A DNA stretch of 64,000 nucleotides from a virus (IMGVR_UViG_3300017913_001833:64001-128000), one strand, 5' to 3'. Counted from the stretch's first letter, positions 14,761 through 48,228 are shown. The notes: generated by a model not told the origin, from the sequence alone. Program-made: numbers and translations.

Positions 14761-14789
14761 TTGACGATTTTTCCATTCTATAGTATACT
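14761..14789 (+). promoter_or_regulatory. Sigma70-like promoter, probably giving a leaderless panD transcript
   Basis: TTGACG-17 nt-TATACT; ATG follows 6 nt after the -10 box; no SD. Confidence 0.7.
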
Positions 14790-14795
14790 ATAAGT

Positions 14796-15149
14796 ATGAA
14801 AGAATATGTGCAGTCTAAACTTCACAACATAAATGTAACATCTAAAGCACTTGACTATCATGGCAGTGTTACAGTTTGTAGTGAATTATTAGAAAAATCT
14901 AAAATTGATGCTTATCAAAAAGTAGATGTTGTAAATTTAAACACTGGCAACAGATGGACAACATATGCTGTTCCAGGTTCTAAAGGCAGTTTTGAACTCA
15001 ATGGTGGAGGTGCTCGGCTAGGAGAAATAGGCGACAAGTGTGTTGTGATAGCCTATCAGAGTGCTAATCAGTTCCCAGGTGCTAGTGTAATTTTCTGCGA
15101 TAAGTACAATCATATAGAGTCAACATTAGATTACCCTCAGGAGAAGTAA
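14796..15149 (+). CDS. panD: Aspartate 1-decarboxylase (pyruvoyl-dependent)
   Basis: SKLH, Y-H-G|S-V-T self-cleavage site, NR-W-TTY (Arg/Thr/Tyr active-site residues), LNGGGAR, GD..VIAY. Confidence 0.88.
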   Translation: MKEYVQSKLHNINVTSKALDYHGSVTVCSELLEKSKIDAYQKVDVVNLNTGNRWTTYAVPGSKGSFELNGGGARLGEIGDKCVVIAYQSANQFPGASVIFCDKYNHIESTLDYPQEK

Positions 15150-16082
15150 ATGAAATTAAATAAAATAGAAGGTTTTGGTAACCTCGGTGTTAAAATAAGT
15201 GATATTGATCTTAACACAGCATCTGATGAAGAGTTGATGGAAGTAGGACATGAAGTTCTTCATAAACTAGTTGTAGTAGTGGATAAAGAATGTGCAAATG
15301 TGCCTGTAGAAAGATTTCACTATATACAAACTCTTTGGGGTGACCCTGTAAGATCATATGCAAGTGATAGACTGAAAGAGCGTGTAGAAAAAGAGGGTTG
15401 GAGCAAACTATATCTCGAAACAGCAAAAGACATGAAAGCAATGACTAAAGATCTAAATCATTTGCCAGGCATGATAAGAGTTACAGGCATCAAAGATGAC
15501 AAGGGAAATCGCACTGGAATGTTTGCTGATGGTGAACTAGATTGGCATAGTAATCAACAAAGTGATAATGATGGACATGCTCCTTTAATTGGATTACAAG
15601 GTGTTGAAGGCACATCAGGATCTAGCACAGAATTTTTGCAAACAGTAGATGCATTTAATGAATTAGATAGCGACACTCAAAGTGAAGTTGATCAATTAAT
15701 TGCAATACACAAGTTTGAAAAAGATCGTGTTAGTAGAGGTACAAGTGATTCACAAGCACTTATTACAAATCTACAACTTGTACCAGAAGATAATGTTGAA
15801 ATGAAAGTTACAGTGAAAGCACCTAATGGCGTAAAAGGTATGCATTTTCCATGGACAAGTATTGTAGGCTTTAAAGATTACACACAAGAAGAATTTGAAA
15901 AACTATATAACTATCTTGTAGAACACCTATGGCAAGACAAATACGTTTATAAACATCAGTGGCAAGATGGTGATATTGTATGGATGGATCAGATAGTAAC
16001 ATTACATAGACGTCCTGGTAACGATACAAGCACAAGACTATTACACAGAATGTGTAGTAACTGGAGCAAAATGAGTGTATAA
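15150..16082 (+). CDS. TauD/TfdA-family Fe(II)/2OG dioxygenase with non-canonical HxN
   Basis: GVKISDIDL, LDWHSNQ, GSSTEF, HQWQDGDIVWMDQIVTLHRR, RLLHR. Confidence 0.8.
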   Translation: MKLNKIEGFGNLGVKISDIDLNTASDEELMEVGHEVLHKLVVVVDKECANVPVERFHYIQTLWGDPVRSYASDRLKERVEKEGWSKLYLETAKDMKAMTKDLNHLPGMIRVTGIKDDKGNRTGMFADGELDWHSNQQSDNDGHAPLIGLQGVEGTSGSSTEFLQTVDAFNELDSDTQSEVDQLIAIHKFEKDRVSRGTSDSQALITNLQLVPEDNVEMKVTVKAPNGVKGMHFPWTSIVGFKDYTQEEFEKLYNYLVEHLWQDKYVYKHQWQDGDIVWMDQIVTLHRRPGNDTSTRLLHRMCSNWSKMSV

Positions 16083-16770
16083 GATAAAGTTAGATGAAAC
16101 ATGGCATGTAAATTTACTTGACAAATTATTAGAACACGGACTAATAATTGTAAAATGCAATGCAAGTGTTTCTCTAGACGACTTTAAATTATTAGGTAAA
16201 AGATTAGGCAAGCCTTTAATTGCAAAAAAACATACACTAGATGAAGATAGACATGTACAGTATGTAAGTGACAAAGGTTTGTTTAGCAATGATGATGTTG
16301 ATTGGCATAACGACTGGAGTTACGGTGAAGGAAATTATTTCGGTACAATGTTATACAACAATAAGAATGGTCATTTAAGTACAACTGATTTTATTGATAT
16401 GCGTAAAGCATATGATGACTATCCTGATAAAGAATTTTTACATAGAACAGAAGGAACTTACTTTCCCCCACAATATTTACACGAAACTTGCTTTACACCT
16501 AGAATGTTAAAAATTTTAGAAAAAGCAAAAGTAACAAGGAAGTTTGCACATTTACATCATGCTACAGGTGATCACGTTATGTATATTTCTCCAGGTACAT
16601 TACAGAATGACATAGATGTAAATAGTTTAGTTGAACATTGTGAAAAAGACATATACGAACATCACTGGCAAAGCAATGATATTTTAATTTATGATAATAT
16701 TAGATATATGCATAGACGGCATGCATTTGAGGGAGAAAGAGAATTATGGCGAACCCAATTCTGGATCTAA
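16075..16770 (+). CDS. TauD/TfdA-family Fe(II)/2OG dioxygenase
   Basis: DWHND, TDFIDMRKAY, HHWQSNDILIYDNIRYMHRR, RELWR. Confidence 0.82.
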   Translation: MYKIKLDETWHVNLLDKLLEHGLIIVKCNASVSLDDFKLLGKRLGKPLIAKKHTLDEDRHVQYVSDKGLFSNDDVDWHNDWSYGEGNYFGTMLYNNKNGHLSTTDFIDMRKAYDDYPDKEFLHRTEGTYFPPQYLHETCFTPRMLKILEKAKVTRKFAHLHHATGDHVMYISPGTLQNDIDVNSLVEHCEKDIYEHHWQSNDILIYDNIRYMHRRHAFEGERELWRTQFWI

Positions 16771-17471
16771 GCACTAATTTTAAATTACGTTCTATTTTAT
16801 TGTTTAATCATTTACTAGCCATTTATGCGCTAATATATCATTTTAACTTTGGGCTACTTGCTCTATCATATCTATTAGGTTTCTTGCTAGGAGGTATAGG
16901 TATAAGCATAGGATATCATAGATACTTTGCACACTATAGTTTTAAGACAAACAAATTTTACAAATTAGTGTTAACTGCAATAGGACATTTTTGTTCTGTA
17001 GGTAGTGCAATTACGTGGGTTGGTATACACAGAGATCATCATGCTCATAGTGATACAAAAGAAGACCCTCACAGTCCTATATACAATGGTTGGTTAAGAA
17101 CACTAGTGCATGTATGGGAAAAGAATACGATTAATCCAATATATGTAAGACATTTGTTAAAAGATAAAACACTAAAATTTCAGCATAGATATTACTTTCA
17201 TATTTTGCTAGGAGCAATAATAATCAGTTTGTTATTGTTAGGACCAGTAACTACAGCATACATTTATAGTATTCCTGCTATTCATGTATTCTACGCAACA
17301 GGAATTGTTAATAGTATTAACCATTGGGGCGGGAAACCAAACAACATTCCTTTACTAAACATTTTTACGAGCGGCGAAAGTTATCATGCTAATCATCATG
17401 ATAATGTTGCCAATTGGCGCTTTGGATCGTTTGATCCGATGGCTCCTATTATAAGGTTAATCAAAGAATGA
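16746..17471 (+). CDS. Membrane fatty-acid desaturase (delta-9/DesC-like)
   Basis: His boxes HRYFAH, HRDHH, HANHH; DPHSP; NSINH; hydrophobic segments. Confidence 0.88.
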   Translation: MANPILDLSTNFKLRSILLFNHLLAIYALIYHFNFGLLALSYLLGFLLGGIGISIGYHRYFAHYSFKTNKFYKLVLTAIGHFCSVGSAITWVGIHRDHHAHSDTKEDPHSPIYNGWLRTLVHVWEKNTINPIYVRHLLKDKTLKFQHRYYFHILLGAIIISLLLLGPVTTAYIYSIPAIHVFYATGIVNSINHWGGKPNNIPLLNIFTSGESYHANHHDNVANWRFGSFDPMAPIIRLIKE

Positions 17472-18376
17472 AATATTACGAACAAAGACCAGAAGAAAAT
17501 ACATTCAAAGTTATATTTGTAGATCTCACACATAGATGTAACATGGATTGTTTCAATTGTTATCTGCCTAATAGAACAATACCAGACATGGACGAAAACA
17601 TGTTATACGATGTTTTAGAACGATTACCTGAAAGAACTTATATAAGACTTATAGGTGCAGAGCCTACTCTACGCAAAGACTTAACTGATATTATAAGAAA
17701 AGTTTTACACTATGGTCATAAGCCTAGTGTCACTACAAATGGATTAAAATTAGCAAGTTTAAAATATTGTCAAGAACTACGTGATGCTGGGTTGCGTATG
17801 GTATTACTAAGCATGAATGGTGCTGACGAACAGAAGATATATGAAAAAATAGATAATCATAGCCACGCACATGATCTTAAAATGCAAGCATTAGAAAATT
17901 GTTTCAAAACAAAAGGCTTTATAATCAACACAGGTACTATTATCGCCAAGGGTGTGAACGAACATACACTTAGAAGGCAAGCAGATATTGTATCAGACCT
18001 AGCAGAAAAATATAAGCCAAGAGTGAAACCAGTATTACGTGTAAAAAACATAGGCGACCTAGGCCGTTACATGCAAGGCAACACTATGAGCTTTGAAGAA
18101 TTAGTAGATGTTGCAAGCAATCAGTTAGGTATACCCAAAAGTACAATAATGGCAGAACGTGTAGAAGCAGGCACAAATAAAATTACTACAAATAATTACG
18201 GAGAAAGTTATTTGTTTGAATACAAAAACGTATATGTAAGATTAATCAACTGGAATGAAGAAGATGATCTAAACGACAGTGGTATAAATGGAAGCAAAAA
18301 CAGAGGACGTCTTACTGAAGATGGTATGATAGCACCTTGTTGGGAGCATATAAAACTAAATGAGTACGGTTACTAA
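17468..18376 (+). CDS. Radical SAM enzyme (MoaA-like core, no C-terminal auxiliary Cys cluster)
   Basis: CNMDCFNC, GAEPTL, TTNG. Confidence 0.85.
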   Translation: MKYYEQRPEENTFKVIFVDLTHRCNMDCFNCYLPNRTIPDMDENMLYDVLERLPERTYIRLIGAEPTLRKDLTDIIRKVLHYGHKPSVTTNGLKLASLKYCQELRDAGLRMVLLSMNGADEQKIYEKIDNHSHAHDLKMQALENCFKTKGFIINTGTIIAKGVNEHTLRRQADIVSDLAEKYKPRVKPVLRVKNIGDLGRYMQGNTMSFEELVDVASNQLGIPKSTIMAERVEAGTNKITTNNYGESYLFEYKNVYVRLINWNEEDDLNDSGINGSKNRGRLTEDGMIAPCWEHIKLNEYGY

Positions 18377-18974
18377 ACTAGATCAAACGCACAAAGGTTT
18401 ATTTAACAATTTTGTAAATGCAGAAATAGCACAGAGAAATTTGCATTCAGATCCCTTGTGGCAAAATATTTTGTTTATTGAACCAGATAGAGATATATTT
18501 GCCATAATAGAAAATGAGAATATAAAAGCATGTATGGCAGTTGAATACATCCAAACAATGCCTTGGTGTATACACAACACATTTATTATGCATTATGAAC
18601 TAAATGCTTTCACTGGAATCAAATATACAAAAAAATTATATGAGCATGTTTTAAATTACGCTGAAACTAAAGGTATATGGAGCCATTGGTATGCAAGAAC
18701 TGACAAAATAGATCAAGCATTAAAAAGTGAAAAATATGAATATGAAGGAATAAAACAAATGTCAAGATATGGAAATATGTTGGCGAAAGTTATAGGTGAT
18801 AGATATACTATTGCAGATAGAGCATATGTCAAAGCAGGACATTTAACAGGAATACCTCTATACGATAGGCTAATGATAGGCAAACCACTTCCATATGATG
18901 TAACACTACGGCAGATAACTATTAAACAATCAGCAGTAGCAGAAGGTTTTGGCGAGCGTATTACCTATGGCTAA
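18360..18974 (+). CDS. Hypothetical protein, possibly GNAT-like
   Basis: IFAIIENENIKACM...LYEHVLNYAETKG pattern resembles a GNAT topology; weak. Confidence 0.5.
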   Translation: MSTVTKLDQTHKGLFNNFVNAEIAQRNLHSDPLWQNILFIEPDRDIFAIIENENIKACMAVEYIQTMPWCIHNTFIMHYELNAFTGIKYTKKLYEHVLNYAETKGIWSHWYARTDKIDQALKSEKYEYEGIKQMSRYGNMLAKVIGDRYTIADRAYVKAGHLTGIPLYDRLMIGKPLPYDVTLRQITIKQSAVAEGFGERITYG

Positions 18975-20106
18975 CATATTAATAAATTATCAAAGTTCAA
19001 GTCTAAGACATACAACTCAAGAATTAAACGAGCATAATCTATATTCATGGAGAGTGCTTAATAAAGATTTCACAAAACGCACTGCTAGAGAAATACATCC
19101 TAGCTTTATTGATAATATTGACATATATGATGACCCTAGACCTATTGTTGCAAAAAAGATCAAAGCCTATATGGCAGAAAAAAATATTGATCTAATTTTT
19201 CCTTTGTACAATGATATGATGTTGCCTTACTTGTATGACAAAGTAGGCATAACTAAGAAACAGGCTAGTATTTTATCAAACAAAGAATACTACAGTAAAT
19301 TAGCCCGCCAATTGCATATTCCTGTGCCTAAAACTTATACCAACGTCCATGATGCTACATTTCCTATAATTGCTAAGCCAGTTAATGGTACAGGCAGTAT
19401 AGGCATAAAGGTCTTAACTGACTTTGATGATTTTGCACAATTTGTATCTGGCAAAGACTATCAGCATAATGATTTAGATCAATACTACATCTTCCAAGAA
19501 TTTTTACAAGGTAAGACTGTAAGTTGTGCAGGTAGGATTGTAGACGGAGAATTGCTTTATGATATATCATATGAAATAGAATCAAGTGCTTTACCTTATA
19601 GAGCAGAGACTGGATTTATCTTTTCTGCTGATATGGATCATGATAGTACATTACAATATTATATAGAAAAACTAGTTAAAGGATTAGGCTTAGATAACTG
19701 TTGCTGGATGGCTGACTTTTTATACAGTGATGGCGAATACTATTTGGTTGACTTTAGTGCCAGGCTTAGCACCAGTGCTCAAACACTTATTAAATATAGT
19801 GCTAATGTTGACTATAATAAAATTGTTGTTGATAGTTTACTATACAAAGACAAAACAAAAGTAGACTGCAAAAAAAGTGTAGTGTATAGGCATTTTAATT
19901 TACCAATGAGCGAATACAACACTGATATAGATGAGTGGCTTGTTGATGAAATACAATTACCTGCATACACTACATACCAAAATAGGATAGACATGTTGGT
20001 ACAATATAATGGTTACGCAATAACTAGTGCAGAATCATTAGCAAAAGCAGAACATAAGCATAAAAAAGTAGTTCAAACTTTAGTAAAATCTCTTAATGTA
20101 ATATAG
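18967..20106 (+). CDS. ATP-grasp ligase
   Basis: NKEY..KLA, IPVPKT, FPIIAKPVNGTGSIGI, IFQEFLQG, ADFL...LVDFSARL. Confidence 0.85.
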   Translation: MANILINYQSSSLRHTTQELNEHNLYSWRVLNKDFTKRTAREIHPSFIDNIDIYDDPRPIVAKKIKAYMAEKNIDLIFPLYNDMMLPYLYDKVGITKKQASILSNKEYYSKLARQLHIPVPKTYTNVHDATFPIIAKPVNGTGSIGIKVLTDFDDFAQFVSGKDYQHNDLDQYYIFQEFLQGKTVSCAGRIVDGELLYDISYEIESSALPYRAETGFIFSADMDHDSTLQYYIEKLVKGLGLDNCCWMADFLYSDGEYYLVDFSARLSTSAQTLIKYSANVDYNKIVVDSLLYKDKTKVDCKKSVVYRHFNLPMSEYNTDIDEWLVDEIQLPAYTTYQNRIDMLVQYNGYAITSAESLAKAEHKHKKVVQTLVKSLNVI

Positions 20107-20777
20107 TCGGGGCGCAGATTTTTTGTGACTTTATTATCCAATCTATTGTAACAAACAAACAATACAGTCCTGTCATCATTGCTTAAATTAGCGTCACTAG
20201 CATGTAGAGTATTGGCATGCATTACTATGCAGTCTCCGGCATTAGCCACCAGCTGTAGGGCTTTATACGCTGTTTTAGACGCCATTATTCCAAGGTTTTC
20301 GTCCGCACTATGTTTAATAGTCCATGAATCTGTTTCGAATTTTTCAACAGGTAAAGTATGTGATTCTGGCAATATTTGCAATGGTCCATTATTGTCATGC
20401 ATATCATCTAATATATACAGTACACTTATAGCATGAGGATTCGGCATGCCATCCATATTATGCCAATAAGTGTAATCGCTATGCCAAGCAAACTCTCCGC
20501 CTGTTTGTGATTTTTTATAATTGAAATGACACTGGTGTATGTAAATATCATCACCTAATTGTTCTTTGATATATGGTATTGCAGGATTGTCGTATAGAAA
20601 ATCATTTATTATTTCACTACGCCAATGCGGAGCAAATATGCTTCTAAGACTACCGTTGTTTTCTAGTATGTAAGTGTCATCAGCAGTACTGTATTCTAAA
20701 CGTTTTGCTTCTGCTTTAAGTGGTGTGGGATCAAAAATTCTTTGTAGAATTTCAAAGTCTTTATTCATGCAAGCCAT
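20073..20777 (-). CDS. PhyH-family Fe(II)/2OG hydroxylase, ectoine hydroxylase-like
   Basis: FAWHSDYTYWHNMDGMP resembles the EctD signature; NGPLQILPESH; AGDCIVMHANTLHAS..N.S...R. Confidence 0.8.
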   Translation of the reverse strand: MACMNKDFEILQRIFDPTPLKAEAKRLEYSTADDTYILENNGSLRSIFAPHWRSEIINDFLYDNPAIPYIKEQLGDDIYIHQCHFNYKKSQTGGEFAWHSDYTYWHNMDGMPNPHAISVLYILDDMHDNNGPLQILPESHTLPVEKFETDSWTIKHSADENLGIMASKTAYKALQLVANAGDCIVMHANTLHASDANLSNDDRTVLFVCYNRLDNKVTKNLRPDYITLRDFTKV

Positions 20778-20829: not shown

Positions 20830-21204
20830 ATGAAAAAAGTTACCGTTAAATTTACTTCAGCTACAGATGACATTGAAACATTTGTCACTGGGAAATTTGA
20901 TAGCCTAGATGATGCAACTTTAGCAAGTCTGCATTCAACAATAGGTACAAACACAACTAATGGAAATATTTGGTTAAGACATTATTGCATTGAAGGTAGT
21001 CAAGCTCATATGATTTATATCCTAGATGATGCTGATGCAGTGACAGCAGTACAGCCTGCTCTAACACTAATGGCAGGTATTGAAGGATATGTTGAAACTG
21101 TAACTGAAGATATGACTTTTGATGAATTCAGTGCTTATGCAGCAGATCACAGAGAAACTGAAATCGTACATGCACGTAAAACTGCATTAGATGAGGCTAG
21201 TTAA
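20830..21204 (+). CDS. Hypothetical acidic protein (124 aa), probably late-expressed
   Basis: AGGAG RBS and late core upstream; no enzyme motif recognised. Confidence 0.75.
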   Translation: MKKVTVKFTSATDDIETFVTGKFDSLDDATLASLHSTIGTNTTNGNIWLRHYCIEGSQAHMIYILDDADAVTAVQPALTLMAGIEGYVETVTEDMTFDEFSAYAADHRETEIVHARKTALDEAS

Positions 21205-22041
21205 TAGCTCTTTAACTTCTATTTCGTAAACACCATTATACAGTAATCTTACATCTTCAATACTAGAAAATACCTGTTCCATTATAGGAGATTCTTCTAG
21301 CATTTCCCATCCTGTATATTTTTGTCTAGGAACAAAATTATAATTAGTAGAATAAAGTTTATGCTTGCTAGTCCGTGTGCTTAGTTTACCCGGACGTTGG
21401 TTGTTAACAAGTTCTTGTATTATAGGATCTCTCGCGAATGCAACTACCATTTCGGGAGTGTAACGTAAAAAGTCTGGTGTGCCGTCTATGTTGTTTATTT
21501 CATACCAACGGTTATAAGAATTTACTCTTTCAGTTTCTTGCCATTTCCATATACCGTCATAATTTTTGAAGTACGGTTCACCATTGGCCATAATCACAGT
21601 CCCAGACACTTTAGTAATACCTTTCATAACAGGAATCATTTGATAAGCGCAACATTGAGCTTTGTGTGCAATGTCTTTAAATTCTCCGCTGTATACTAAA
21701 TCTTCAACATCAACATTTATTACTTGTGGAGTAATGCCATTAATTTTACAAAAATCATATGCATAATTTGTATCATGCTCGTTCCAGTGTCCGTAATCTA
21801 TTATTGCTACATCAAATTGTATGCCTGCAGACTGGAAAACTCTGATCATAAACTCGCTGTCAATACCTCCGCTAAATAGAATAGTAAGAGAGTGTAGTGC
21901 AGTTTGCTCAACAAGTTTTGCGGATCTGATACATTCATTAGTAAATGAATCTATTATATTGTTTTTACACTTGTCCAAATGAACTGTCCAGCTACTGCCA
22001 TTACCTGATTGTTTGAAATAATTATTATAAGAAAGATCCAT
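21187..22041 (-). CDS. PP-loop (adenine nucleotide alpha-hydrolase-like) ATPase/amidoligase
   Basis: LTILFSGGIDSE PP-loop; PRQKYTGWE C-terminal motif. Confidence 0.7.
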   Translation of the reverse strand: MDLSYNNYFKQSGNGSSWTVHLDKCKNNIIDSFTNECIRSAKLVEQTALHSLTILFSGGIDSEFMIRVFQSAGIQFDVAIIDYGHWNEHDTNYAYDFCKINGITPQVINVDVEDLVYSGEFKDIAHKAQCCAYQMIPVMKGITKVSGTVIMANGEPYFKNYDGIWKWQETERVNSYNRWYEINNIDGTPDFLRYTPEMVVAFARDPIIQELVNNQRPGKLSTRTSKHKLYSTNYNFVPRQKYTGWEMLEESPIMEQVFSSIEDVRLLYNGVYEIEVKELLTSLI

Positions 22042-22713
22042 ATGAAAGCATTTAGTCCAATAGATTATAAGTTCGACAAAGAAGCAATTTACAAAGACTT
22101 AATGGAAATGAAAATCTTCGACAAAAGTTTCCTTGCTACAGTTATTTACAAAGACGGCAGGAGTAAGTATGATAAAGCTGGTGTGTTTGACAAGTATGAA
22201 GATGTAACACATTATGATGAGGAGGGCGAACTTGTAAAAGGCGATTACAATACCTTTGTAACATATAACTTTACACAGTGTCCTGATATTCCTGAAACAG
22301 CAGACAACAGTTTTACAGAGACTGAAGATGGTAGAAAACCTGTTTGGCATGTGTATGATCTACCGTGGTTCTGGAAAAGCAACACTCCAAAAAGTATAAA
22401 AGAGGCTGTCAACAATTTAGGATTATCTTATATAACTTGTGTAAGGCTAGTAGGACAAACACCTCCTAGTAAAGGCATTGTTCATGTAGACGCAGATTAC
22501 AAAGACAATTTACGTTACTACAAAAAAGGCGGAGTAAGTATTACTCTTAACATAAGCGATGGTGGTGGACATCTACAATACCTTACTCCTCAAGGTATGC
22601 AAGAAGTAGATGAATCTTTATACGACTGTTGGCATTTCAATGATGCACTACAACATAGGACTACAGAAATTACAAGCCCTAGAATACAAATTAGAGTATT
22701 TGGAAGAAAATGA
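22042..22713 (+). CDS. Fe(II)/2OG oxygenase-like protein
   Basis: CVRLV...IVHVD...FNDALQHRT...RIQIRVFG; similar to the split gene at 3366-3955. Confidence 0.7.
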   Translation: MKAFSPIDYKFDKEAIYKDLMEMKIFDKSFLATVIYKDGRSKYDKAGVFDKYEDVTHYDEEGELVKGDYNTFVTYNFTQCPDIPETADNSFTETEDGRKPVWHVYDLPWFWKSNTPKSIKEAVNNLGLSYITCVRLVGQTPPSKGIVHVDADYKDNLRYYKKGGVSITLNISDGGGHLQYLTPQGMQEVDESLYDCWHFNDALQHRTTEITSPRIQIRVFGRK

Positions 22714-23420
22714 CAGACTGGCGCAATTTAGTTTTTTCACCATTAGACTTGCCAAGTCCACCCGAAGTAGATATGGATGCTTTTATCGAGTGGCATGCTA
22801 AACAGAAAAAGTTTATGCTACAACATAATCAAAACAAAGTCAACAGTACAAATATATACGGAGGCTATTGTTGGCACATAAGTTGGGCAATCTGGTGGAA
22901 TACATATAAATTAGACAACCCTTGGATTTGCGGCTTTGAGAAATATTTTCCTGAGCTAGTCGACTATATAAACATGTTTCCTTTTACGCAAATAAAAAGT
23001 ATCAGTTTCCTTAATCAGATAGGAGGCGCAAAAGTTGAACCTCATAGTGATCCTGATAAAATGTGGGGTATGCGTTTTTACTTAAAAAATAAAACCAAAG
23101 ATGCTCTATACTTTAGTAGAATGAAAGAACCTCGTAATGAACGCATAGCAACAATGGAAGATGCAGATGGCAATCCTTTAAGCAAACGTAGAGATCATTT
23201 AGATTTTTGTAGAGATGAAAAAATTTATGCACGTTTTCCTAAAGACGAATGTGCTTGGATGCTTAACAGTTACAGAGCATGGCATGGTTTAGATGAAAAC
23301 GCTTCACCAACAGGAAGCAGAATTACATGTGCTATAATCGGCGACTACGACAAAGACAAACTTTTTAACTTGCTAGACTCAAGCACAAAAGAATATAAAG
23401 ATTATCAAATTTGGTTTTAA
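22710..23420 (+). CDS. Fe(II)/2OG oxygenase-like protein
   Basis: VEPHSD...LNSYRAWHG...RIT; paralog of the next gene (shared PLDLP N-terminus and LDxSxxxYKDY C-terminus). Confidence 0.7.
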   Translation: MTDWRNLVFSPLDLPSPPEVDMDAFIEWHAKQKKFMLQHNQNKVNSTNIYGGYCWHISWAIWWNTYKLDNPWICGFEKYFPELVDYINMFPFTQIKSISFLNQIGGAKVEPHSDPDKMWGMRFYLKNKTKDALYFSRMKEPRNERIATMEDADGNPLSKRRDHLDFCRDEKIYARFPKDECAWMLNSYRAWHGLDENASPTGSRITCAIIGDYDKDKLFNLLDSSTKEYKDYQIWF

Positions 23421-23421
23421 C

Positions 23422-24042
23422 ATGACAATACTATACACACCTTTAGATTTACCAGCACTAGACTTTGACAGAGAAGAATTTATAAAATGGCACGAAGCAA
23501 AAAGATGGCGTAACAGAGATAACATTAATTACGACACAAAAGATTTTATTGCTCCGTGGTTAGTAAGTTTTGCGTATCATAAAGACTATGGTTGGTGTAA
23601 CAGATTTATGAAAGTCATTCCAAACTTTCAAGACATATTGTACAATCATCTTCCATACTATGATATTACATATGTAAACTTTTTAGAACAAAAGATTCCT
23701 TGTCAACTACATCAAGATGTTGGCAGTCGTCCTGAAAGAGAAGACGAACCAGGTGCATACAAAGCATTTATGGTTTATGATGCACCATTAATGTATTTCC
23801 AAGTAGGAGAAGATAAGAAAAATCTTAGTGAAGAAAAGTTATATATTCAACATCCTAATGAACTTACGAAATGGTTTGCAATTAATAACTATGATGCATA
23901 CCATGCAGCTGACTTGCCAAGCAAGGGTCAACGCAAAATTATAATGACAATATTAGGAAAATTAGATAAAGAAAAACACAAACAGATACTAGATAGAAGT
24001 TTAGAAAAGTATAAAGATTATCTAATTACCTGTAAAACTTAA
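23422..24042 (+). CDS. Fe(II)/2OG oxygenase-like protein
   Basis: LHQD...INNYDAYHAA...RKII. Confidence 0.7.
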   Translation: MTILYTPLDLPALDFDREEFIKWHEAKRWRNRDNINYDTKDFIAPWLVSFAYHKDYGWCNRFMKVIPNFQDILYNHLPYYDITYVNFLEQKIPCQLHQDVGSRPEREDEPGAYKAFMVYDAPLMYFQVGEDKKNLSEEKLYIQHPNELTKWFAINNYDAYHAADLPSKGQRKIIMTILGKLDKEKHKQILDRSLEKYKDYLITCKT

Positions 24043-24634
24043 TTAGATCAAATTGGTCGGGCTTTTTATTTCTACTGCTTATTGCAATATCAGGTTTTAC
24101 ATTAGCATGATCCCAACCTAGTTCTACTCCATCCTTATATACTTTTCTAATTGGATCTGTGTCTAATTGATCTATATATCCTATACCAAGAATAATGGCG
24201 GCTGTTTTTCCAGACCTATCTAATTTTTTTGCAACTTTACCAGGTTCAATACATCCACAAAAGCCTGTTTGTAAACCTATTTCTTCGGCGGCAACCATTG
24301 CTATTGTTGCACTTACTATACAGTCTGCATATGTTTCTTTATCTTTATCAGATGCTATCCATGTTAAAATCACAGGAGCAAGAACTTGTCCGTTGTACCT
24401 TCTTACACCATCGCCTTCTGCGCCTCTTACTCCATTTAGGCAACAGGTATTTTTATAGTATAACCAATTTTTAAATTCTTCTGATTTAGAAACAAAAACT
24501 TCATATTCAAAATTTCCATTTTTAGATGGAGCATTGTAAAGACAATCTAGAACGTATTTTAATTTTTTATCCTCAACTTGAGAATCACTCCACCATTTTG
24601 CAGTTATACGTTTTTGTAAAAGGTCTTTTATCAT
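24026..24634 (-). CDS. Nitroreductase-fold flavoprotein
   Basis: LQKRITAKWW, APSKNG, AAEEIGLQTGFCGC, LGIGY. Confidence 0.8.
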   Translation of the reverse strand: MIKDLLQKRITAKWWSDSQVEDKKLKYVLDCLYNAPSKNGNFEYEVFVSKSEEFKNWLYYKNTCCLNGVRGAEGDGVRRYNGQVLAPVILTWIASDKDKETYADCIVSATIAMVAAEEIGLQTGFCGCIEPGKVAKKLDRSGKTAAIILGIGYIDQLDTDPIRKVYKDGVELGWDHANVKPDIAISSRNKKPDQFDLIKFYR

Positions 24635-26100
24635 GCTAGTGTCTTTTGTAAATAATCTTGTATAGCTTTACGCTTTGTATTCTTCAAGTATTTATGAGGT
24701 AATTTTTTGCGTAAGCCCGAGTAGTCTTGGTAGTGCTTTTCTAAATCTAATCCTAAACTAGTCACACTACCACATACCCAGCCTGCTACTTTTTGATAAC
24801 TGTCATCCATCTGTCTTAATTCTTCTGCAAGTTTTCCTGCTTTTATAGCATTCATGTGTTCATTTTTCCATACTGTCATCCATGCATTTGTTTTACTTGC
24901 AAGTGTATTTTTTAGTAGACGTTTTTGCTTATGTACTTTATACCCATACTTTTCAGGATTACGATCAATTGGGCTATGATATTCGTGATGTTCTTTTGAA
25001 TGTATTAGTAATGGATACCATTGCCAAAAGTCTATATTAGGATCTGAAACTACACGTTCTCTACTTTCTCTAATACTTGATTCGCTTTCATGAGGTAATC
25101 CAACAATTAAGTTTATCTGTGTTTTTACTTGCCCTTTACTTTTTTGCTTCATATCAGCTATAGCATCTAGCACTTTGTCTACTGTATAGCCTTTTTGCAC
25201 TGCTTGTCTTGTTTGTTTGTTATAACTTTCAATACCGAAACTTGCTCCTCGTAATCCTGATTCAACTAGTAAATCTATTTGGTCGGGCCACCTTACTAAC
25301 AATTCTGGTTTGATATATGTATCAAAATTTATGTTGAAAGGTAAACTACTTATAACTTCGTGCATAAGTTCTAATTTAACCATACTATCGTTATATGTAT
25401 CGTCCATAAACCAATAATTTGTTGTACCAAATTTTTCATAGTTACGCATAAATTCTGTATACATATCTTCTTTAGCACGGATATAATCAAACTTATTTTT
25501 GTTGTTAAGCGGAAAATTACAGAAACTACAATTAAAAATGCATCCTCTGGCTATTTCCATAGGTAAACTTTGATGCGGTGTGATGTAATCTTCTGCTTTC
25601 CATAGAACAGGTATATTACTAATATCTTTTCTATCATAATTGTGATTACTATCAACTATTTTCTTACCTTTGTAGTCTCTAAATTTTAGATTTGTATCTT
25701 TGCCGTCAAGGTATTTTGTTAATGCTACTGTTGCATCGTCTGCATATCCTGTAACGAATATATCTGCAAAGTCTAAAAATTCTACCATTGCTTTTGCACC
25801 GCCAATTACAAATGGTACTTTATATTGTTGGCGAAGATTTGTAAAGAATAATTTTCTTTCTTGTAATAGTTGAGATGTGTTAAAAAATGTTGTGCTGAAT
25901 CCTACCCATAGTGTATCTTGACTAACATATTTGTCAAACGCTTGTTGTATATTTTCATTAGACATGCTATGGAAATGGTCAATTACTTTGACTCTGTATC
26001 CATTCATCTCTAATTCTGTGCGTATCCTGTACGCTCCTAAAGCTCGAAAATATGTAGACTCTGATAAATCAATACCAGTAAAGATTACAGCATGATACAT
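24631..26100 (-). CDS. B12-binding-domain radical SAM enzyme (class B methyltransferase-like)
   Basis: Start at MYHAVIFTG (26100, TAATG overlap); VGFSTT..VIGG..VTGYAD B12-type domain; EIARGCIFNCSFC; DDTYN; GIES; IVGLPHE. Confidence 0.82.
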   Translation of the reverse strand: MYHAVIFTGIDLSESTYFRALGAYRIRTELEMNGYRVKVIDHFHSMSNENIQQAFDKYVSQDTLWVGFSTTFFNTSQLLQERKLFFTNLRQQYKVPFVIGGAKAMVEFLDFADIFVTGYADDATVALTKYLDGKDTNLKFRDYKGKKIVDSNHNYDRKDISNIPVLWKAEDYITPHQSLPMEIARGCIFNCSFCNFPLNNKNKFDYIRAKEDMYTEFMRNYEKFGTTNYWFMDDTYNDSMVKLELMHEVISSLPFNINFDTYIKPELLVRWPDQIDLLVESGLRGASFGIESYNKQTRQAVQKGYTVDKVLDAIADMKQKSKGQVKTQINLIVGLPHESESSIRESRERVVSDPNIDFWQWYPLLIHSKEHHEYHSPIDRNPEKYGYKVHKQKRLLKNTLASKTNAWMTVWKNEHMNAIKAGKLAEELRQMDDSYQKVAGWVCGSVTSLGLDLEKHYQDYSGLRKKLPHKYLKNTKRKAIQDYLQKTLA

Positions 26101-26852
26101 TATGTTTTGATTAGTTTGATTACCCAAGCACTTGGGTCTAATTCCCACCATTTGTGTTGAAAGTTCCATCTACCAGGTTTAGCATGATGATTGTTATGCC
26201 AACCTTCACCCCATGTAATAAGTGCAAGCCACCAAGTGTTACGGCTGTCTTCTTTTGTTTCGTAGTTTCTATATCCCCACATGTGATTTATGTAGTTGCT
26301 TAGAACACTGATCCAAATTTGTATTCCCATTGGAATAATACCTGCAAATATTAAAACATTTATGCCGCCTGCAATGTATAAAACTGCAAGCCATACAAGT
26401 AGTATAGCATAATAATAATTATGAAGCAAGAGATGAAATTTATCAGTGATAAGTTTTCTTACTGACCATTTATTCATTTCAAATTCATACTTAGGTATTA
26501 ACACATTCCACACACCGAGATGCGGACTATGTGGATCTCCATCTTTATCAGCATTTTTATGATGATCATTGTGTATAGCAACCCATCCAATACTACTCCC
26601 TGTTCCGCCTATAGCACCAAAAAAGGAAAACAAATATTCCATCCACTTATATCTAAATTTAAATGATCTATGTGTCAGATAGCGATGAAATGTAACTGTA
26701 ATACCTAAACATCCTGTTAAAAAATAGACAGCAATACTTAATGCCCACCATGATAGACTAGGTGCAAAGAACAGCATATAAACAATAGCCAATGTTGCTA
26801 CTGCCTGTATGTATGGGAAGTAGGTTGTATTTGCTCTAAAAATGTCTCTCAT
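26100..26852 (-). CDS. Membrane fatty-acid desaturase (delta-9/DesC-like)
   Basis: HRYLTH, HNDHH, DPHSP, NHMWGYRNY, GEGWHNNHH, WWELDP. Confidence 0.9.
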   Translation of the reverse strand: MRDIFRANTTYFPYIQAVATLAIVYMLFFAPSLSWWALSIAVYFLTGCLGITVTFHRYLTHRSFKFRYKWMEYLFSFFGAIGGTGSSIGWVAIHNDHHKNADKDGDPHSPHLGVWNVLIPKYEFEMNKWSVRKLITDKFHLLLHNYYYAILLVWLAVLYIAGGINVLIFAGIIPMGIQIWISVLSNYINHMWGYRNYETKEDSRNTWWLALITWGEGWHNNHHAKPGRWNFQHKWWELDPSAWVIKLIKT

Positions 26853-26857
26853 GATAA

Positions 26858-26864
26858 TATTTAT
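26858..26864 (-). promoter_or_regulatory. Late promoter core, probably leaderless transcript
   Basis: Minus strand reads GATAAATA-TTATC-ATG. Confidence 0.55.
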
Positions 26865-26871
26865 CCTGGTT

Positions 26872-27708
26872 TTATAGGGTTATCATATGATCAGGCAATA
26901 TATCGCCTTCTAGCAACATGTCAAAAGGATGTTTTACTCCAAAGAACTTGTTTGTTGCCCATGTTTTTTCAATAGGATCATAGTCAAACCAAGGACTACA
27001 TCCTATTACAAGATGTGTTCTAGTGTTGTCAGTTTTTTCTGTGCTAAAAACTTTGTGTGCTACATTTGTATCCCATGTATACAAGTTACCTACTTTTAAA
27101 TTGTAAGGATCTTTGTTTTCCATTTGAAAATAAAATTCTTTACTAGTTGTAAGCGGAATGTTCAATCTAAGATTTATAAAAATACTTTCATCCCTATGCC
27201 AACCTACCTTAGGATCATCTGGAAAGTCTTTTGCAACAAGTGTGCTTATTCTACTTCTAACTATAGTAGGTTTAATTTGTGCAAGTAGATTTCCTAACTC
27301 TCCTTCTATACTACAAGGTGTAGGTTTTACAAATCCAAATGTGTCGTAATAACTGTCTTTTACATATTCATGATTGTGCGTTTGTGCATAAAAGAATTCA
27401 CCTGTCTTATTCTTAGGTGTACCTATACTGTTAACATTTTCATCTATATTATCTTGATGATTTGGATTACTACGCAAACTTAAACTTTTATAAAAATTTA
27501 CGTTTTGATTTTTAGTTTGCCAACCAACTGGATTGTATTTTTGTAAAATCTCTTGTACACTATTTTTTAACGCTTCAATATCATAGTTAAACTGTAAAGA
27601 TAAGTCACTATGTTTTGATTCAACTAAATGTTTGTTAAGTTTAGTTGCTTTTGTTAACCATTCGTGGACAGTAAATGCCTTAGGACATAATTCAACTGGG
27701 TACTTCAT
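26872..27708 (-). CDS. Asp/Asn beta-hydroxylase-like Fe(II)/2OG oxygenase
   Basis: RSRIS...WHRD...RLNIPLTT...WDTNVAH...RTHLV. Confidence 0.78.
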   Translation of the reverse strand: MKYPVELCPKAFTVHEWLTKATKLNKHLVESKHSDLSLQFNYDIEALKNSVQEILQKYNPVGWQTKNQNVNFYKSLSLRSNPNHQDNIDENVNSIGTPKNKTGEFFYAQTHNHEYVKDSYYDTFGFVKPTPCSIEGELGNLLAQIKPTIVRSRISTLVAKDFPDDPKVGWHRDESIFINLRLNIPLTTSKEFYFQMENKDPYNLKVGNLYTWDTNVAHKVFSTEKTDNTRTHLVIGCSPWFDYDPIEKTWATNKFFGVKHPFDMLLEGDILPDHMITL

Positions 27709-28271
27709 AGACTTTCCTTGTATTGCTTGATATTTAATTCAGCAACTGTTTGAAGTGTATATTGTACTTCTACTTTTTGATCTAGCCATGTTAGATTATT
27801 ATATATTTTTCTTGGGCCACCAAACGTACTTGCTTTGCCTTCACTCATACGTCTTAGAAAATTAACAAGTCGATGATTATAATCATTAAAAGTCATCCAA
27901 ACTTTTTCATAACCTTGTGCATGCCAATAGTCTATCTGCAAAGGGAATATATTTCTTGCTTGACACCAGTGGCCTCCTCCTCTATAATCTGGATGAGTAA
28001 ATGCCCTAACTCCAATAATAGGTATATCTTTCCACAAATACGTGCCACTCATAGCAATAGGTTTAACATCACGTACGATGTTAAACATATCAAATCTTTG
28101 CTTTTTATGTATTAGATGCAACAAAGTATAAGATTTGTTTTCCCAGCCATTAATATCATAATTTTTATAGGCATTTTCTTTTAGACTATATGCATACTCA
28201 CTTAGATATTGTAAATCTAAATTTTGAATATCTGTAATTTTTCCGCGGTATAACGAATCAGTTTTGATCAT
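27705..28271 (-). CDS. GNAT-like acyltransferase
   Basis: PIAMSG, RAFTHPDYRGGG (acetyl-CoA-binding motif A-like), VWMTFNDYN. Confidence 0.62.
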   Translation of the reverse strand: MIKTDSLYRGKITDIQNLDLQYLSEYAYSLKENAYKNYDINGWENKSYTLLHLIHKKQRFDMFNIVRDVKPIAMSGTYLWKDIPIIGVRAFTHPDYRGGGHWCQARNIFPLQIDYWHAQGYEKVWMTFNDYNHRLVNFLRRMSEGKASTFGGPRKIYNNLTWLDQKVEVQYTLQTVAELNIKQYKESL

Positions 28272-28274
28272 AAA

Positions 28275-28772
28275 CTAGATTGCTCCTACACTAACCAACT
28301 TCTTAAATGTGTAAGGAAATTTGCATTGTAGCACAAATGCACTACGCCAGCCATCTGTGTTATTTTCATAACCATGCCAAGAGCTACAATCAAATGCAGT
28401 AGGACAATCTATCAGCACACTATCAATTTTTTTGCCGTCAATACTCTCATAAAAATCTAAAGGTGTGCTATAGTTGTCTAAAGGAAAAAGTATATTGACT
28501 GTGCGTTTAATTTCACCCGCTGCACTATCTTCGTGTGCTTCTACAATACTATTAGCTTGTGTTCTTATAAAACTACAACTATAGAATATTTTACTCATTG
28601 CAAATTGATCTAATATCTCTTTAACATAATAATTTTTCATATCATATGCACTATGAACTTGCTGAGGAACTTTTCGTCCTATTTCTTTATATCCATCACT
28701 ATAGGTTAAACTTTGTGCAATCTCTAACAATGCATCTTTAGAATATTTTATATGAGGTAATTGTTTATACAT
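28275..28772 (-). CDS. Fe(II)/2OG oxygenase-like protein
   Basis: AHED...VNILFP...SWHGYEN...RSAF. Confidence 0.7.
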   Translation of the reverse strand: MYKQLPHIKYSKDALLEIAQSLTYSDGYKEIGRKVPQQVHSAYDMKNYYVKEILDQFAMSKIFYSCSFIRTQANSIVEAHEDSAAGEIKRTVNILFPLDNYSTPLDFYESIDGKKIDSVLIDCPTAFDCSSWHGYENNTDGWRSAFVLQCKFPYTFKKLVSVGAI

Positions 28773-29491
28773 TAACTTTCAGCCGCTTCTAGAATGTTCA
28801 AAACTCTTAATACATTTTCATAAGTCTTAGGAATGTTGAGAACTAAATGTATACTGCCGTGCTGATAACTATGTGTCCTATGTTGTTTACGGGTATCAAT
28901 ATAGTAACACCGGCCTTCTTCAATACTGCGTATACTGTAATCATGCTCCCATTGATAACTTTGATGTCCTGTATTTGTTAAAAATGCTACTATACGAAAA
29001 CATTTGCGTTGTAGTAACACACCATCTCTATGGCTTGGAAACCATCCACCTTTGTTAACTTTTACAAGTGTGCAACGTCCTAACTTAGGAAAGTAATCTA
29101 ATATAGGATGTAAGCTAGGAGTATCATGATATAATTGTGTAGGTGTATCGAAGTCAAGTTCATTTAATTTACGACCAGCTCGTTTTTGTGCTTCTGGCAT
29201 ACTAATACTATCTTGTGGTGTATCACCAGGTAACCCTACCATGTTAAGTCCGTCTCTATCATTAAGACTACCTTCACGGTGTAAGTAAGGAACCCACTGT
29301 CCGTCATATTTAGAAATTTCTTTTCTAAATTCACTTAGGTTAATTTTAATTGAAAGAGGAACAAAATCACCAATTGCATCAAGTTGCATTTCAGTAGCAA
29401 TATCCAAAAGTTTTGGATGTGAAAACGTACCGTCTTTAAATGATTGTAAATAATCAATTTTAAGTTTTTTCTTTTCTTCTTCTGTTATCAT
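28772..29491 (-). CDS. Asp/Asn beta-hydroxylase-like Fe(II)/2OG oxygenase
   Basis: GGWFPSHRD...GRCYYIDTRKQH...IHLVLNI. Confidence 0.75.
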   Translation of the reverse strand: MITEEEKKKLKIDYLQSFKDGTFSHPKLLDIATEMQLDAIGDFVPLSIKINLSEFRKEISKYDGQWVPYLHREGSLNDRDGLNMVGLPGDTPQDSISMPEAQKRAGRKLNELDFDTPTQLYHDTPSLHPILDYFPKLGRCTLVKVNKGGWFPSHRDGVLLQRKCFRIVAFLTNTGHQSYQWEHDYSIRSIEEGRCYYIDTRKQHRTHSYQHGSIHLVLNIPKTYENVLRVLNILEAAES

Positions 29492-30180
29492 TGTATCTCC
29501 GTAAAAATACTTAGTCCTATTTTTCTGTCAACCCCTAGCTTTGTAAAGTCACTTGAACAATGTATTCGTAAACTATCAAAAGCAATTATACTTCCTATAG
29601 TCCAAGGAAAAAATCCTTTCACACTTAATCCTTCAAGCCAATTATCTTTCAAATGAGTTAAGACATTTCTAATAGGTTGCGGTATTCCATTTTTATTTGT
29701 GTTTTCTACTTCACTATAATCATATAATGGTTGATTGTAATAAAATGGTATATCTAAATCTTGTTCACCGTTGAACAATTTTACAGGACCGCCATAATAG
29801 TATTGGTCAAACATAACTAGTTTTATTTTGTTACAATCTCCTTTATCTACCCATAAAGGTATAGTAAATGCTTTGTACACATCTGGATATTCAAAACTAT
29901 CATCTATGTGTAGCACATGAGGACTAGTAACATCAAAATAATGTGCAGACCTTACTTTGAAATTTCCAAACTGTTTACGTAACAAATCTAGTATGTCATC
30001 AATTACGTCTTCACCTTCTTCAACATACACAACTTTAGGACCTGTATTCTTTTCTATCTTTTCACTTGCATGATAATATTCAAGCAAACTTGTAATTTTG
30101 TCTTGATTAATTACATTTAATAATTGTGTAGATTCAGAATGTGTTTTCTTAATCCTGTTTATCTGCTCTGTTGTTCTCAT
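29488..30180 (-). CDS. Fe(II)/2OG oxygenase-like protein
   Basis: Start MRTTEQ (30180); LHIDD...FTIPL...GSIIAFDSLRIHCS...KIGLSIF. Confidence 0.68.
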   Translation of the reverse strand: MRTTEQINRIKKTHSESTQLLNVINQDKITSLLEYYHASEKIEKNTGPKVVYVEEGEDVIDDILDLLRKQFGNFKVRSAHYFDVTSPHVLHIDDSFEYPDVYKAFTIPLWVDKGDCNKIKLVMFDQYYYGGPVKLFNGEQDLDIPFYYNQPLYDYSEVENTNKNGIPQPIRNVLTHLKDNWLEGLSVKGFFPWTIGSIIAFDSLRIHCSSDFTKLGVDRKIGLSIFTEIQ

Positions 30181-31288: not shown

Positions 31289-31293
31289 AATAT

Positions 31294-31322
31294 ACTATAA
31301 CACCACTACAGCTATTTGTCAA
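31294..31322 (-). promoter_or_regulatory. Sigma70 promoter with extended -10, probably leaderless
   Basis: Minus strand TTGACA-17 nt-TATAGT with TG; ATG follows 5 nt later. Confidence 0.72.
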
Positions 31323-31358: not shown

Positions 31359-31940
31359 ATGACTTTGCTAGACTACGCAAAAACTATAGAACCTTGTCAA
31401 AGGAACTGGGACGAAGATTACGAAGTTCCAGATGAACATATAGATTACATATTAGACGTATGCACAACAGTTCCCACAAAACAAAACCTAAACACCTATA
31501 GCTTAGTTACTATTACAGACAGAGAAACTATAGAAAATATATATAAAAAGTGTGCTTTTGATCCACAAGGCTATGCAGCAACTTATCTAAAAAACAGCCA
31601 AGTAAATGCAAATGCTTTGTTCATATGGTGCAATGGCACAGACAAGGCTGAATTCAAAGATGATGTAGATATTGCAGTTGGTATAAGTTCTGGTGCTGCT
31701 GCACTTGCGGCAGCTGAACTAGGTTACAAAACAGGTTTTTGCAAATGTTTTGAACCAAGACCTCTAAGAAAAATTCTTAGAAAAGCAGGTGTAAAAGATT
31801 ACAATCATGGTATACTAATGTTAGGGGTAGGTAAACCTAACGAGGATTTTCCTAGACATTACATTGTACGTGATGGAAGATACGCAGGTTTGCAACCTCC
31901 TAAAGGTGACAAAAATATTTTGCGTCAAAGGATTAAGTAG
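31359..31940 (+). CDS. Nitroreductase-fold flavoprotein
   Basis: CQRNWD, VPTKQN, AAAELGYKTGFCKC, LGVGKP. Confidence 0.78.
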   Translation: MTLLDYAKTIEPCQRNWDEDYEVPDEHIDYILDVCTTVPTKQNLNTYSLVTITDRETIENIYKKCAFDPQGYAATYLKNSQVNANALFIWCNGTDKAEFKDDVDIAVGISSGAAALAAAELGYKTGFCKCFEPRPLRKILRKAGVKDYNHGILMLGVGKPNEDFPRHYIVRDGRYAGLQPPKGDKNILRQRIK

Positions 31941-37421: not shown

Positions 37422-37439
37422 TATATACGTACTTATTAG

Positions 37440-48193: not shown

Positions 48194-48199
48194 AGTACT

Positions 48200-48228
48200 A
48201 TACTAACACCTTTTGCAGTGTTTGTCAA
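48200..48228 (-). promoter_or_regulatory. Sigma70 promoter with extended -10, probably leaderless
   Basis: Minus strand TTGACA-17 nt-TAGTAT with TG; ATG follows 6 nt later. Confidence 0.7.

Follow-up and report, generated by a model that had tools for sequence, protein, structure and literature searches.

A phage operon headed by PanD and closed by an amino acid ligase-type ATP-grasp enzyme: a candidate source of beta-alanyl conjugates

L-amino acid ligases (Lal) of the ATP-grasp fold join free amino acids via an acyl-phosphate intermediate. In the N-acetylglutaminylglutamine amide (NAGGN) osmolyte pathway, the GNAT-ATP-grasp fusion Ngg and AsnO produce an N-acetylated dipeptide. The pyruvoyl aspartate decarboxylase PanD of Escherichia coli requires a GNAT protein, PanZ, and CtaC, the thioamide synthetase that acts in making closthioamide, belongs to the PP-loop enzymes. 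In closthioamide (CtaD/CtaF) and butirosin (BtrJ/BtrK) biosynthesis, an ATP-grasp enzyme and an Asp/Glu decarboxylase build beta-alanyl or gamma-aminobutyric acid (GABA) amide units (PMC7183216). Delta9 desaturases encoded by phages count among the recognized auxiliary metabolic genes (PMC5776448). Here we describe a viral operon of seven genes that begins with panD and ends with a gene for an ATP-grasp ligase, at positions 14796-20106 of a 64,000-nucleotide stretch (the window), which represents bases 64001-128000 of the 146 kb IMG/VR record IMGVR_UViG_3300017913_001833 (CheckV completeness ∼39%). We found no published description of a system combining a phage PanD with an ATP-grasp enzyme, and the operon DNA had no match among deposited phage genomes.

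PanD-based and ATP-grasp-based searches of marine and other metagenomes recovered ∼15 distinct syntenic loci, all of them metagenomic, in which PanD is always the first gene of the operon and the ATP-grasp gene always the last, with zero to five genes between them that turn over. PanD, a GNAT-like protein and the ATP-grasp enzyme are always present, with the exception of one sub-variant lacking the GNAT-like gene, and the shared order runs from a tail fibre gene through a promoter and PanD to the ATP-grasp gene, followed by a convergent PhyH gene. We tentatively favor a reading in which this core makes a small beta-alanyl conjugate, with optional tailoring. PanD would self-cleave to its pyruvoyl form and convert free L-aspartate to beta-alanine, and the Lal/PylC-type ATP-grasp enzyme would activate a carboxylate as an acyl-phosphate and form an amide bond, beta-alanine being one of the partners. 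The GNAT-fold protein, whose translation is coupled to that of the ligase, would either acylate a free amine or serve as a non-CoA transferase or specificity partner, giving a small, dipeptide-like and possibly N-acylated product that a convergent EctD-like hydroxylase and other nearby oxygenases may oxidize further. A hand-off from PanD to the ligase is the most economical explanation because PanD always comes first in the ligase operon although the genes separating the two turn over heavily, and because PanD is independently paired with another amide-ligase family.

The operon consists of seven plus-strand open reading frames (ORFs), encoding PanD, two TauD-fold proteins, a desaturase, a radical SAM enzyme, the GNAT-like protein and the ATP-grasp enzyme. 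The gaps at its six junctions (0, -8, -25, -4, -17 and -26 nt) bear out a sequence-only reading of this DNA, which had described seven abutting or overlapping genes behind their own sigma70 promoter. That promoter (TTGACG-17-TATACT; 14761-14789, plus strand) lies 6 nt upstream of the panD ATG. The region shows no enrichment in promoter-like sites (49 against 54 expected), and the arrangement TTGACx-17-TAtAaT-6 nt-ATG is kept, within otherwise divergent sequence, at all 10 of the related loci for which upstream sequence was read. As both hexamers, their 17-nt spacing and their offset from the ATG have been retained amid differing flanks, the promoter is a phylogenetic footprint beyond chance. 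Its end only 6 nt before the start codon predicts a leaderless mRNA; the panD transcript is thus probably leaderless, and the operon would be an early transcription unit read by the host RNA polymerase.

PanD (117 amino acids; 14796-15149, plus strand) matches the Pfam family Asp_decarbox (PF02261; 1.6e-28, 99.3 bits against a gathering cut-off of 25) and falls below the cut-off of the NCBIfam equivalog TIGR00223 (77.8 vs. 106 bits), as a divergent member would. It also matches solved PanDs in the PDB (best 7.5e-15), the closest being 3oug and 2c45, which we take to come from organisms whose PanD self-processes without PanZ; the closest deposited PanD is that of the Gordonia/Rhodococcus phage Jace, at 51% identity. 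The G|S cleavage site and the Arg, Thr and Tyr residues singled out in the sequence-only reading are all retained: K8, Y21, G23|S24, R53, T56, Y57 and N69 show no variation among 11 phage homologues, which thereby possess the self-cleavage site and a complete complement of catalytic and aspartate-binding residues, with counterparts of Lys9, Tyr22, Arg54, Thr57, Tyr58 and Asn72 (E. coli numbering). Judged by these residues PanD looks catalytically intact, and the intact active site argues for the production of free beta-alanine.

The ATP-grasp carboxylate-amine ligase (18949-20106, plus strand; Pfam ATP-grasp_3, 3.4e-08) is listed with a TTG start at 18949 that adds six residues absent from its homologues (377-383 amino acids); the true start is probably the ATG at 18967 (MANILINY...), which would overlap the preceding gene by 8 nt. 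The family profile identifies the Lal enzyme BL00235 in the PDB (3.1e-11), and an AlphaFold2 (AF2) model (pLDDT 88.4) matches the BL00235 structure (3vot) over essentially its full length (VIA Z 31.5, 363 residues), ∼4 Z above the next matches, YwfE/BacD (Z 27.6), RizA and PylC (Z 25.9). The predicted structure is therefore nearest to enzymes that ligate free amino acids, in agreement with the earlier suggestion that the ATP-grasp protein is of an amino-acid-ligating kind; protein ligases of the RimK, TTL and graspetide types are not among the top structural matches listed. These structural neighbors argue for the joining of small carboxylate and amine substrates. Distant homologues bear LAL_C2 or PylC-like_N domains, and some are fused to a GNAT (one case), GT28, formyltransferase or methyltransferase domain. 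The ATP-grasp protein had no match in deposited phages, and a scan of viral contigs with this single sequence as the query yielded no confirmed relative.

The GNAT-like protein (gene 6; 204 amino acids; 18360-18974, plus strand), in every case encoded directly upstream of the ligase, has no match in Pfam or NCBIfam and is classified by its predicted fold. All of the top 50 structural matches to an AF2 model built with 13 homologues (pLDDT 83.4, pTM 0.81) are GNATs (Foldseek probability 1.0, VIA Z up to 13.5), the best by VIA being RimI (Z 13.5, rmsd 3.0, 145 residues), so the label ‘GNAT-like’ given before any structure was predicted is well founded. The Q/RxxGxG/A CoA loop expected after strand 4 is not conserved in the family alignment (columns 86-100). 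The family was found in this phage clade only, and it shows no profile similarity to P0183, the distant GNAT-ATP-grasp fusion with an N-terminal GNAT domain. By sequence comparison the GNAT-like gene is apparently the fastest-evolving member of the operon. In the loci L017/L066, compared with 17468-18974 and the ligase of the window, the radical SAM enzyme is 87% identical, the GNAT-like protein 34-51% and the ATP-grasp protein 52-55%. A predicted complex of the ATP-grasp and GNAT-like proteins, run without controls, scored 0.00, which argues neither for nor against their association.

The related operons contain three, five, six, seven or eight genes. The interior may consist of the GNAT-like gene alone (L002-4, L012, L014, L035/36), of TauD2, radical SAM and GNAT-like genes (L027), of TauD1, TauD2, radical SAM and GNAT-like genes (L009-11), or of the same genes as in the window (L008, seven genes); an eight-gene version has two desaturases (L017/L066), and in the sub-variant L005/6/28 the desaturase and radical SAM genes are inverted, the ATP-grasp protein is 30% identical and there is no GNAT-like homologue. 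The four middle genes (the TauD pair, the desaturase and the radical SAM gene) are missing from many relatives and are therefore accessory; they would form an optional, exchangeable tailoring cassette. Downstream of the operon, the relatives conserve PhyH, a PP-loop protein, three proteins without assigned function, a B12-type radical SAM enzyme and a second desaturase. The proposal that the seven genes amount to a self-contained pathway thus has to be given up on two counts, since the middle genes are dispensable and since recurrent partners of the ATP-grasp enzyme elsewhere (PhyH, the PP-loop protein, proteins with HxD...H motifs, the B12-type radical SAM enzyme and desaturase 2) lie outside the operon. 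What survives of the proposed beta-alanyl-conjugate pathway is PanD, the type of the ligase and their linkage within the clade; its seven-gene unity does not.

Several observations weigh against such a pathway. Linkage of PanD to the ATP-grasp gene, which had been predicted for phages generally, holds in every examined member of this clade; it is limited to that one syntenic clade, where shared ancestry could explain it, and, of 44 viral loci with a PanD gene, 31 lack any relative of the ATP-grasp enzyme within 7 kb. Conversely, ATP-grasp relatives with 24-32% identity (L020, L022-25) occur without PanD in other viral lineages, accompanied by an FA_desaturase or FA_hydroxylase, TauD, a B12-type radical SAM enzyme and a PP-loop protein, and by homologues of the 278-, 239- and 206-residue proteins of the window. 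The GNAT-like protein is without a conserved CoA-binding loop, tail fibre flanks and nearby glycosyltransferases leave room for a macromolecular acceptor, and, with only ∼39% of the genome in the record, genes for PanB and PanC could lie elsewhere. Finally, what is observed here is the modularity of the operon, its gene order and conserved promoter, and the folds and catalytic motifs of its proteins; we infer the activity of PanD, the use of beta-alanine by the ligase, the nature of the acceptor, the part played by the GNAT-like protein and the advantage to the phage.

The alternative that survives best, although we consider it unlikely, is that PanD is a stand-alone auxiliary metabolic gene, providing beta-alanine for host pantothenate, CoA and acyl carrier protein (ACP) and merely sharing a promoter with unrelated genes; the ATP-grasp and GNAT-like proteins and the oxygenases would then join the remainder of the surrounding enzyme island in acting on some other substrate. 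The 31 loci without a nearby ATP-grasp gene keep such a supply role in play, and the sequence-only reading went too far in setting it aside. The partners shared by the PanD-free ATP-grasp islands (desaturases, TauD, B12-type radical SAM enzymes, the 278- and 206-residue proteins and the PP-loop protein) fit this alternative as well, as do the SCD-type desaturases of the island, which would consume lipids derived from acyl-CoA or acyl-ACP. Against it, PanD has stayed at the head of the ATP-grasp operon through at least five operon rearrangements, and in the minimal version it overlaps or abuts the GNAT-like/ATP-grasp pair. A ligase partner is also indicated by loci L068-L071 (e.g., L069:7001-9042), from an unrelated viral group, where PanD is followed directly by two Amidoligase_2 (GS-like COOH-NH2 ligase) genes. 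Moreover, the absence of panB and panC, first noted for the window, extends to the whole 146 kb record, in which PanB has no match and the one sequence resembling PanC is a sub-threshold fragment of 18 bits with a stop codon in it.

Most of the 31 loci without an ATP-grasp relative carry a module of ParB-like, ATPase-GNAT, PanD and c2 genes, as in phage Jace. In 28 viral loci, PanD lies within a module of a ParB-like protein, a P-loop ATPase-GNAT fusion, PanD and a CoA-transferase-like protein of ∼230-300 amino acids (L037-L067, e.g., L052, which is phage Jace; L015:4347-7112). Jace was considered as a further instance of the PanD/GNAT-like/ATP-grasp trio and rejected: its panD neighbors encode an ABC-ATPase-GNAT fusion and a CoA-transferase-like fragment, with no homologues of genes 6 and 7. 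In L068-L071, an AAA_28 P-loop protein, a 5'-3' exonuclease and a LuxE-like acyl-protein synthetase are encoded near the PanD-Amidoligase_2 genes.

A second alternative, which we regard as distinctly improbable, is that beta-alanine, or a different amine, is joined by the ligase to a macromolecule (through a carboxylate of a virion or tail fibre protein, to a uronic-acid glycan that glycosyltransferases of the island make, or to a modified DNA base), the island being a decoration or hypermodification factory. The operon opens a ∼33 kb enzyme island (14.8-48.2 kb) that is bracketed by tail fibre genes and includes a glycosyltransferase block; a tail fibre-like gene also adjoins the distant island L025, and in pelagiphage Mosig a cluster of oxygenase, desaturase, GNAT and nitroreductase genes likewise adjoins the tail fibre genes. 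The GT28 fusion among distant ATP-grasp relatives and the very high ratio of tailoring to scaffold enzymes point the same way. This alternative is opposed by the structural proximity of the ligase to free-amino-acid ligases and not to the protein ligases named above, and by the sigma70-type early promoters, which suit host take-over more than late virion maturation. Modification of DNA via 5-hydroxymethyl pyrimidines was rejected for want of a thymidylate-synthase-like hydroxymethylase gene in the 146 kb record, which, being incomplete, makes this a weak argument. The notion of a ribosomally made, post-translationally modified peptide (RiPP) was likewise discarded: neither a precursor-like small ORF nor a carrier protein was seen (no PP-binding match in the record, the small ORFs being without Pfam matches), and the top structural matches of the ligase are not of the graspetide type.

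The weakest alternative, in which the GNAT-fold protein is no acyltransferase and instead resembles PanZ/PanM in binding PanD and controlling its self-cleavage or activity, is very doubtful: the GNAT fold without a conserved CoA loop, the position of the GNAT-like gene directly after and overlapping panD in the minimal operon, the recurrence of PanD-GNAT association (an ATPase-GNAT fusion precedes PanD in 28 other viral loci) and the dependence of E. coli PanD on PanZ all favor it, but longer variants keep the GNAT-like gene beside the ATP-grasp gene, as far as 3.7 kb away from panD, no GNAT-like homologue is detectable in the L005-type variant although PanD is present there, and the nearest relatives of phage PanD are the presumably PanZ-independent enzymes 3oug and 2c45.

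If the operon core does make a beta-alanyl conjugate, the four middle genes would tailor it. Only one of the ‘two TauD dioxygenases’ recognized earlier has a canonical active site. TauD1 (15150-16082, plus strand; Pfam TauD, 6.4e-20; phrog_24590, 2.9e-40) lacks the HxD/E...H facial triad: H133-S-N135 replaces HxD, with N135 aligned to the metal-binding Asp of TfdA (WHSD), and the distal H286, together with R287 and R288, is retained. The HxN motif is common to TauD homologues of Prochlorococcus phage P-HM2 and Mosig, annotated as ‘taurine dioxygenases’ and 28% identical to TauD1; HxA is found in L009/L010. A phage-wide TauD-fold subfamily (phrog_24590; besides the window, e.g., L018:1090-2148, L019:3803-4612 and L009:5738-6574) thus replaces the HxD iron ligand by HxN or HxA and keeps the distal His and Arg; it may have a 2-His center, with halogenase-like or other chemistry, or consist of pseudo-enzymes. 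TauD2 (16075-16770, plus strand; Pfam TauD, 1.3e-19) is a short, canonical Fe(II)/2-oxoglutarate (2OG) dioxygenase with the triad H78-N-D80 ... H213, followed by R-R, and its top PDB matches, ScoE and TfdA, are weak.

The third middle gene encodes a membrane di-iron desaturase of the SCD1/DesC type (241 amino acids; 16746-17471, plus strand; Pfam FA_desaturase, 4e-12) that matches the acyl-CoA desaturase 4zyo (2.1e-08) and has every His box when aligned to SCD1 (HRYFAH, HRDHH, NSINH, HANHH). The fourth, a radical SAM enzyme (gene 5; 302 amino acids; 17468-18376, plus strand; Pfam Radical_SAM, 1.5e-15, 58.2 bits), has the C24-x3-C28-x2-C31 motif. It has no SPASM match in Pfam and no cysteine set of the SPASM type, with only three of its six cysteines outside the motif (C101, C145, C291); its top PDB matches, GDGT-MAS (7e-15), BlsE and MoaA, cover the core region only. 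A lipo-amino-acid product is possible, on hints that are weak and lipid-related: the SCD-type desaturases, FA_hydroxylases in related islands, the weak matches to ScoE and GDGT-MAS, and the presence among the GNAT matches of FeeM, an N-acyl amino acid synthase.

The island around the operon comprises three similarly promoted operons and a few small units, with 11 radical SAM genes, many oxygenases and glycosyltransferases. Overlapping the 3' end of the ATP-grasp gene is the convergent PhyH/EctD-like Fe(II)/2OG hydroxylase (20073-20777, minus strand; Pfam PhyH, 2.3e-25), which is conserved in all relatives and matches the ectoine hydroxylase family TIGR02408 below its cut-off (9.3e-36). Next comes an ATP pyrophosphatase-like protein of the PP-loop type (SGGLDS; 21187-22041, minus strand), with weak matches to QueC, PP-loop and TilS families, an invariant SGG.D and homologues in the relatives and in L025; its family profile gives only a marginal match, to NAD synthetase, in the PDB. 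Three conserved proteins of 234, 236 and 206 amino acids follow (22009-24042, plus strand), with HxD...H-like motifs and no Pfam match. The latter two are paralogues whose families had no match in a PDB profile search, and a homologue of one of the three occurs in the distant island L022. Altogether seven proteins (234, 236, 206, 278, 165, 239 and 268 amino acids; 22009-24042 and 26872-30294) have HxD...H-like motif pairs and no above-threshold Pfam match, which suggests, from the motifs, further double-stranded beta-helix oxygenases.

The second operon (24026-31322, minus strand; promoter TTGACA-17-TATAGT-5 nt-ATG, 31322-31286) encodes a radical SAM enzyme, proteins with HxD...H motifs, a GNAT, the 278-residue protein, desaturase 2, a B12-type radical SAM enzyme and a nitroreductase; the 278-residue, desaturase and B12-type radical SAM families reappear next to distant ATP-grasp homologues. 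The third (31933-48228, minus strand; TTGACA-17-TAGTAT-6 nt-ATG, 48228-48191) contains the glycosyltransferase block and nine radical SAM genes. All 11 radical SAM matches of the 146 kb record fall inside the island (17468-42598), nine of them grouped in a single minus-strand run that also holds two nitroreductases and two PP-loop proteins. The three operon heads (14761-14798, plus strand; 31322-31286 and 48228-48191, minus strand; ATGs at 14796, 31288 and 48193) each have a near-consensus sigma70 promoter 5-6 nt from the ATG and no Shine-Dalgarno sequence, a pattern that suggests leaderless early transcripts across the whole 33 kb island.

The window has a GC content of 33-39%, and the operon is flanked by phage-like genes, including those for a MoxR-type ATPase, a DUF2201/VWA protein whose top deposited matches are from jumbo phages (e.g., PA5oct, RaK2), a 5'-3' exonuclease and tail fibres. 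This suggests an uncultivated marine jumbo phage, with a genome of several hundred kb to judge from the syntenic contig L027 (PBPT01000016.1, 335 kb), which may be a near-complete relative. L027 and L028 (JBDNIA010000282.1) are syntenic with the phage across the fetched stretch, and both are probably phage contigs mis-binned into metagenome-assembled genomes (MAGs). The labels of those MAGs, Neomarinimicrobiota and Crocinitomicaceae, were considered as evidence of the host and dismissed, being mutually discordant and attached to contigs that are phage-like throughout that stretch.

A bolder form of the beta-alanyl-conjugate reading, to which we give little credence, is a virus-encoded natural-product pathway in which a ligase of the Lal type and a GNAT-fold transferase working without CoA build a beta-alanine dipeptide or lipo-amino acid that is then tailored by a 2-His (HxN/HxA) TauD-fold enzyme (possibly a halogenase or non-hydroxylating oxidase), an SCD desaturase and a radical SAM enzyme. 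Expressed early from leaderless transcripts, its product might benefit the phage by poisoning competitors or remodeling the host envelope, and, if this holds, a PanD-fed small-molecule gene cluster would be of a kind not reported from a phage before. Marine myoviruses encode many 2OG oxygenases, desaturases and radical SAM enzymes whose substrates have never been identified. The operon offers a small, testable entry point, with three conserved genes and a predictable building block, beta-alanine, and the natural three- to eight-gene variants serve as ready-made deletion mutants. Knowing the product would indicate whether phages make specialized metabolites or decorate their virions, and would provide a first function for the 33 kb island.

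Among cultured phages, a possible experimental model for such islands is Mosig (L019, 52.5-61.1 kb), a SAR11 (Pelagibacter) myovirus, in which a nitroreductase, two Asp/Arg hydroxylases, an FA_desaturase, an aminotransferase, an FMN reductase, a peroxiredoxin, a TauD protein, a methylase and a GNAT are encoded together beside the tail fibre genes. Together with the TauD of P-HM2 and the DesC-like desaturases of cyanophages, this cluster is among the nearest known parallels in marine myoviruses. Unlike the window, neither the Mosig stretch shown nor the vicinity of the P-HM2 TauD gene has an annotated PanD or ATP-grasp gene. The PanD-PanZ/PanM system of Enterobacteria resembles the phage operon in combining a pyruvoyl PanD and a partner of the GNAT fold; gene 6, however, has no sequence similarity to PanZ, and its position tracks the ATP-grasp gene, not panD.

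As in the NAGGN pathway, a GNAT and an ATP-grasp enzyme occur together in the phage, with an amidotransferase/PP-loop-type enzyme nearby, and one distant homologue of the ligase is a fusion of the Ngg kind. In contrast to NAGGN, the two phage proteins are separate, the GNAT-like protein lacks the CoA loop and a glutaminase domain is missing from the PP-loop protein. The closthioamide and butirosin pathways share with the operon an ATP-grasp enzyme alongside an amino acid decarboxylase, and a PP-loop protein is again encoded near the phage ligase. These pathways are thiotemplated on a peptidyl carrier protein (PCP) and use a pyridoxal phosphate (PLP)-dependent decarboxylase that rejects free Asp, whereas the phage decarboxylase is a pyruvoyl PanD with a site for free Asp; of the two hallmarks of the CtaD/CtaF and BtrJ/BtrK class, the carrier protein has no match in the 146 kb record and the PLP decarboxylase is replaced by PanD. 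The phage ligase is most like the L-amino acid ligases (BL00235, BacD/YwfE, RizA) and PylC, with which it shares a three-domain ATP-grasp fold along its whole length. It differs from them in its low identity (13-17%), in being encoded by a phage, and in being paired with PanD and a GNAT-fold protein instead of with genes for bacilysin or rhizocticin warhead biosynthesis.

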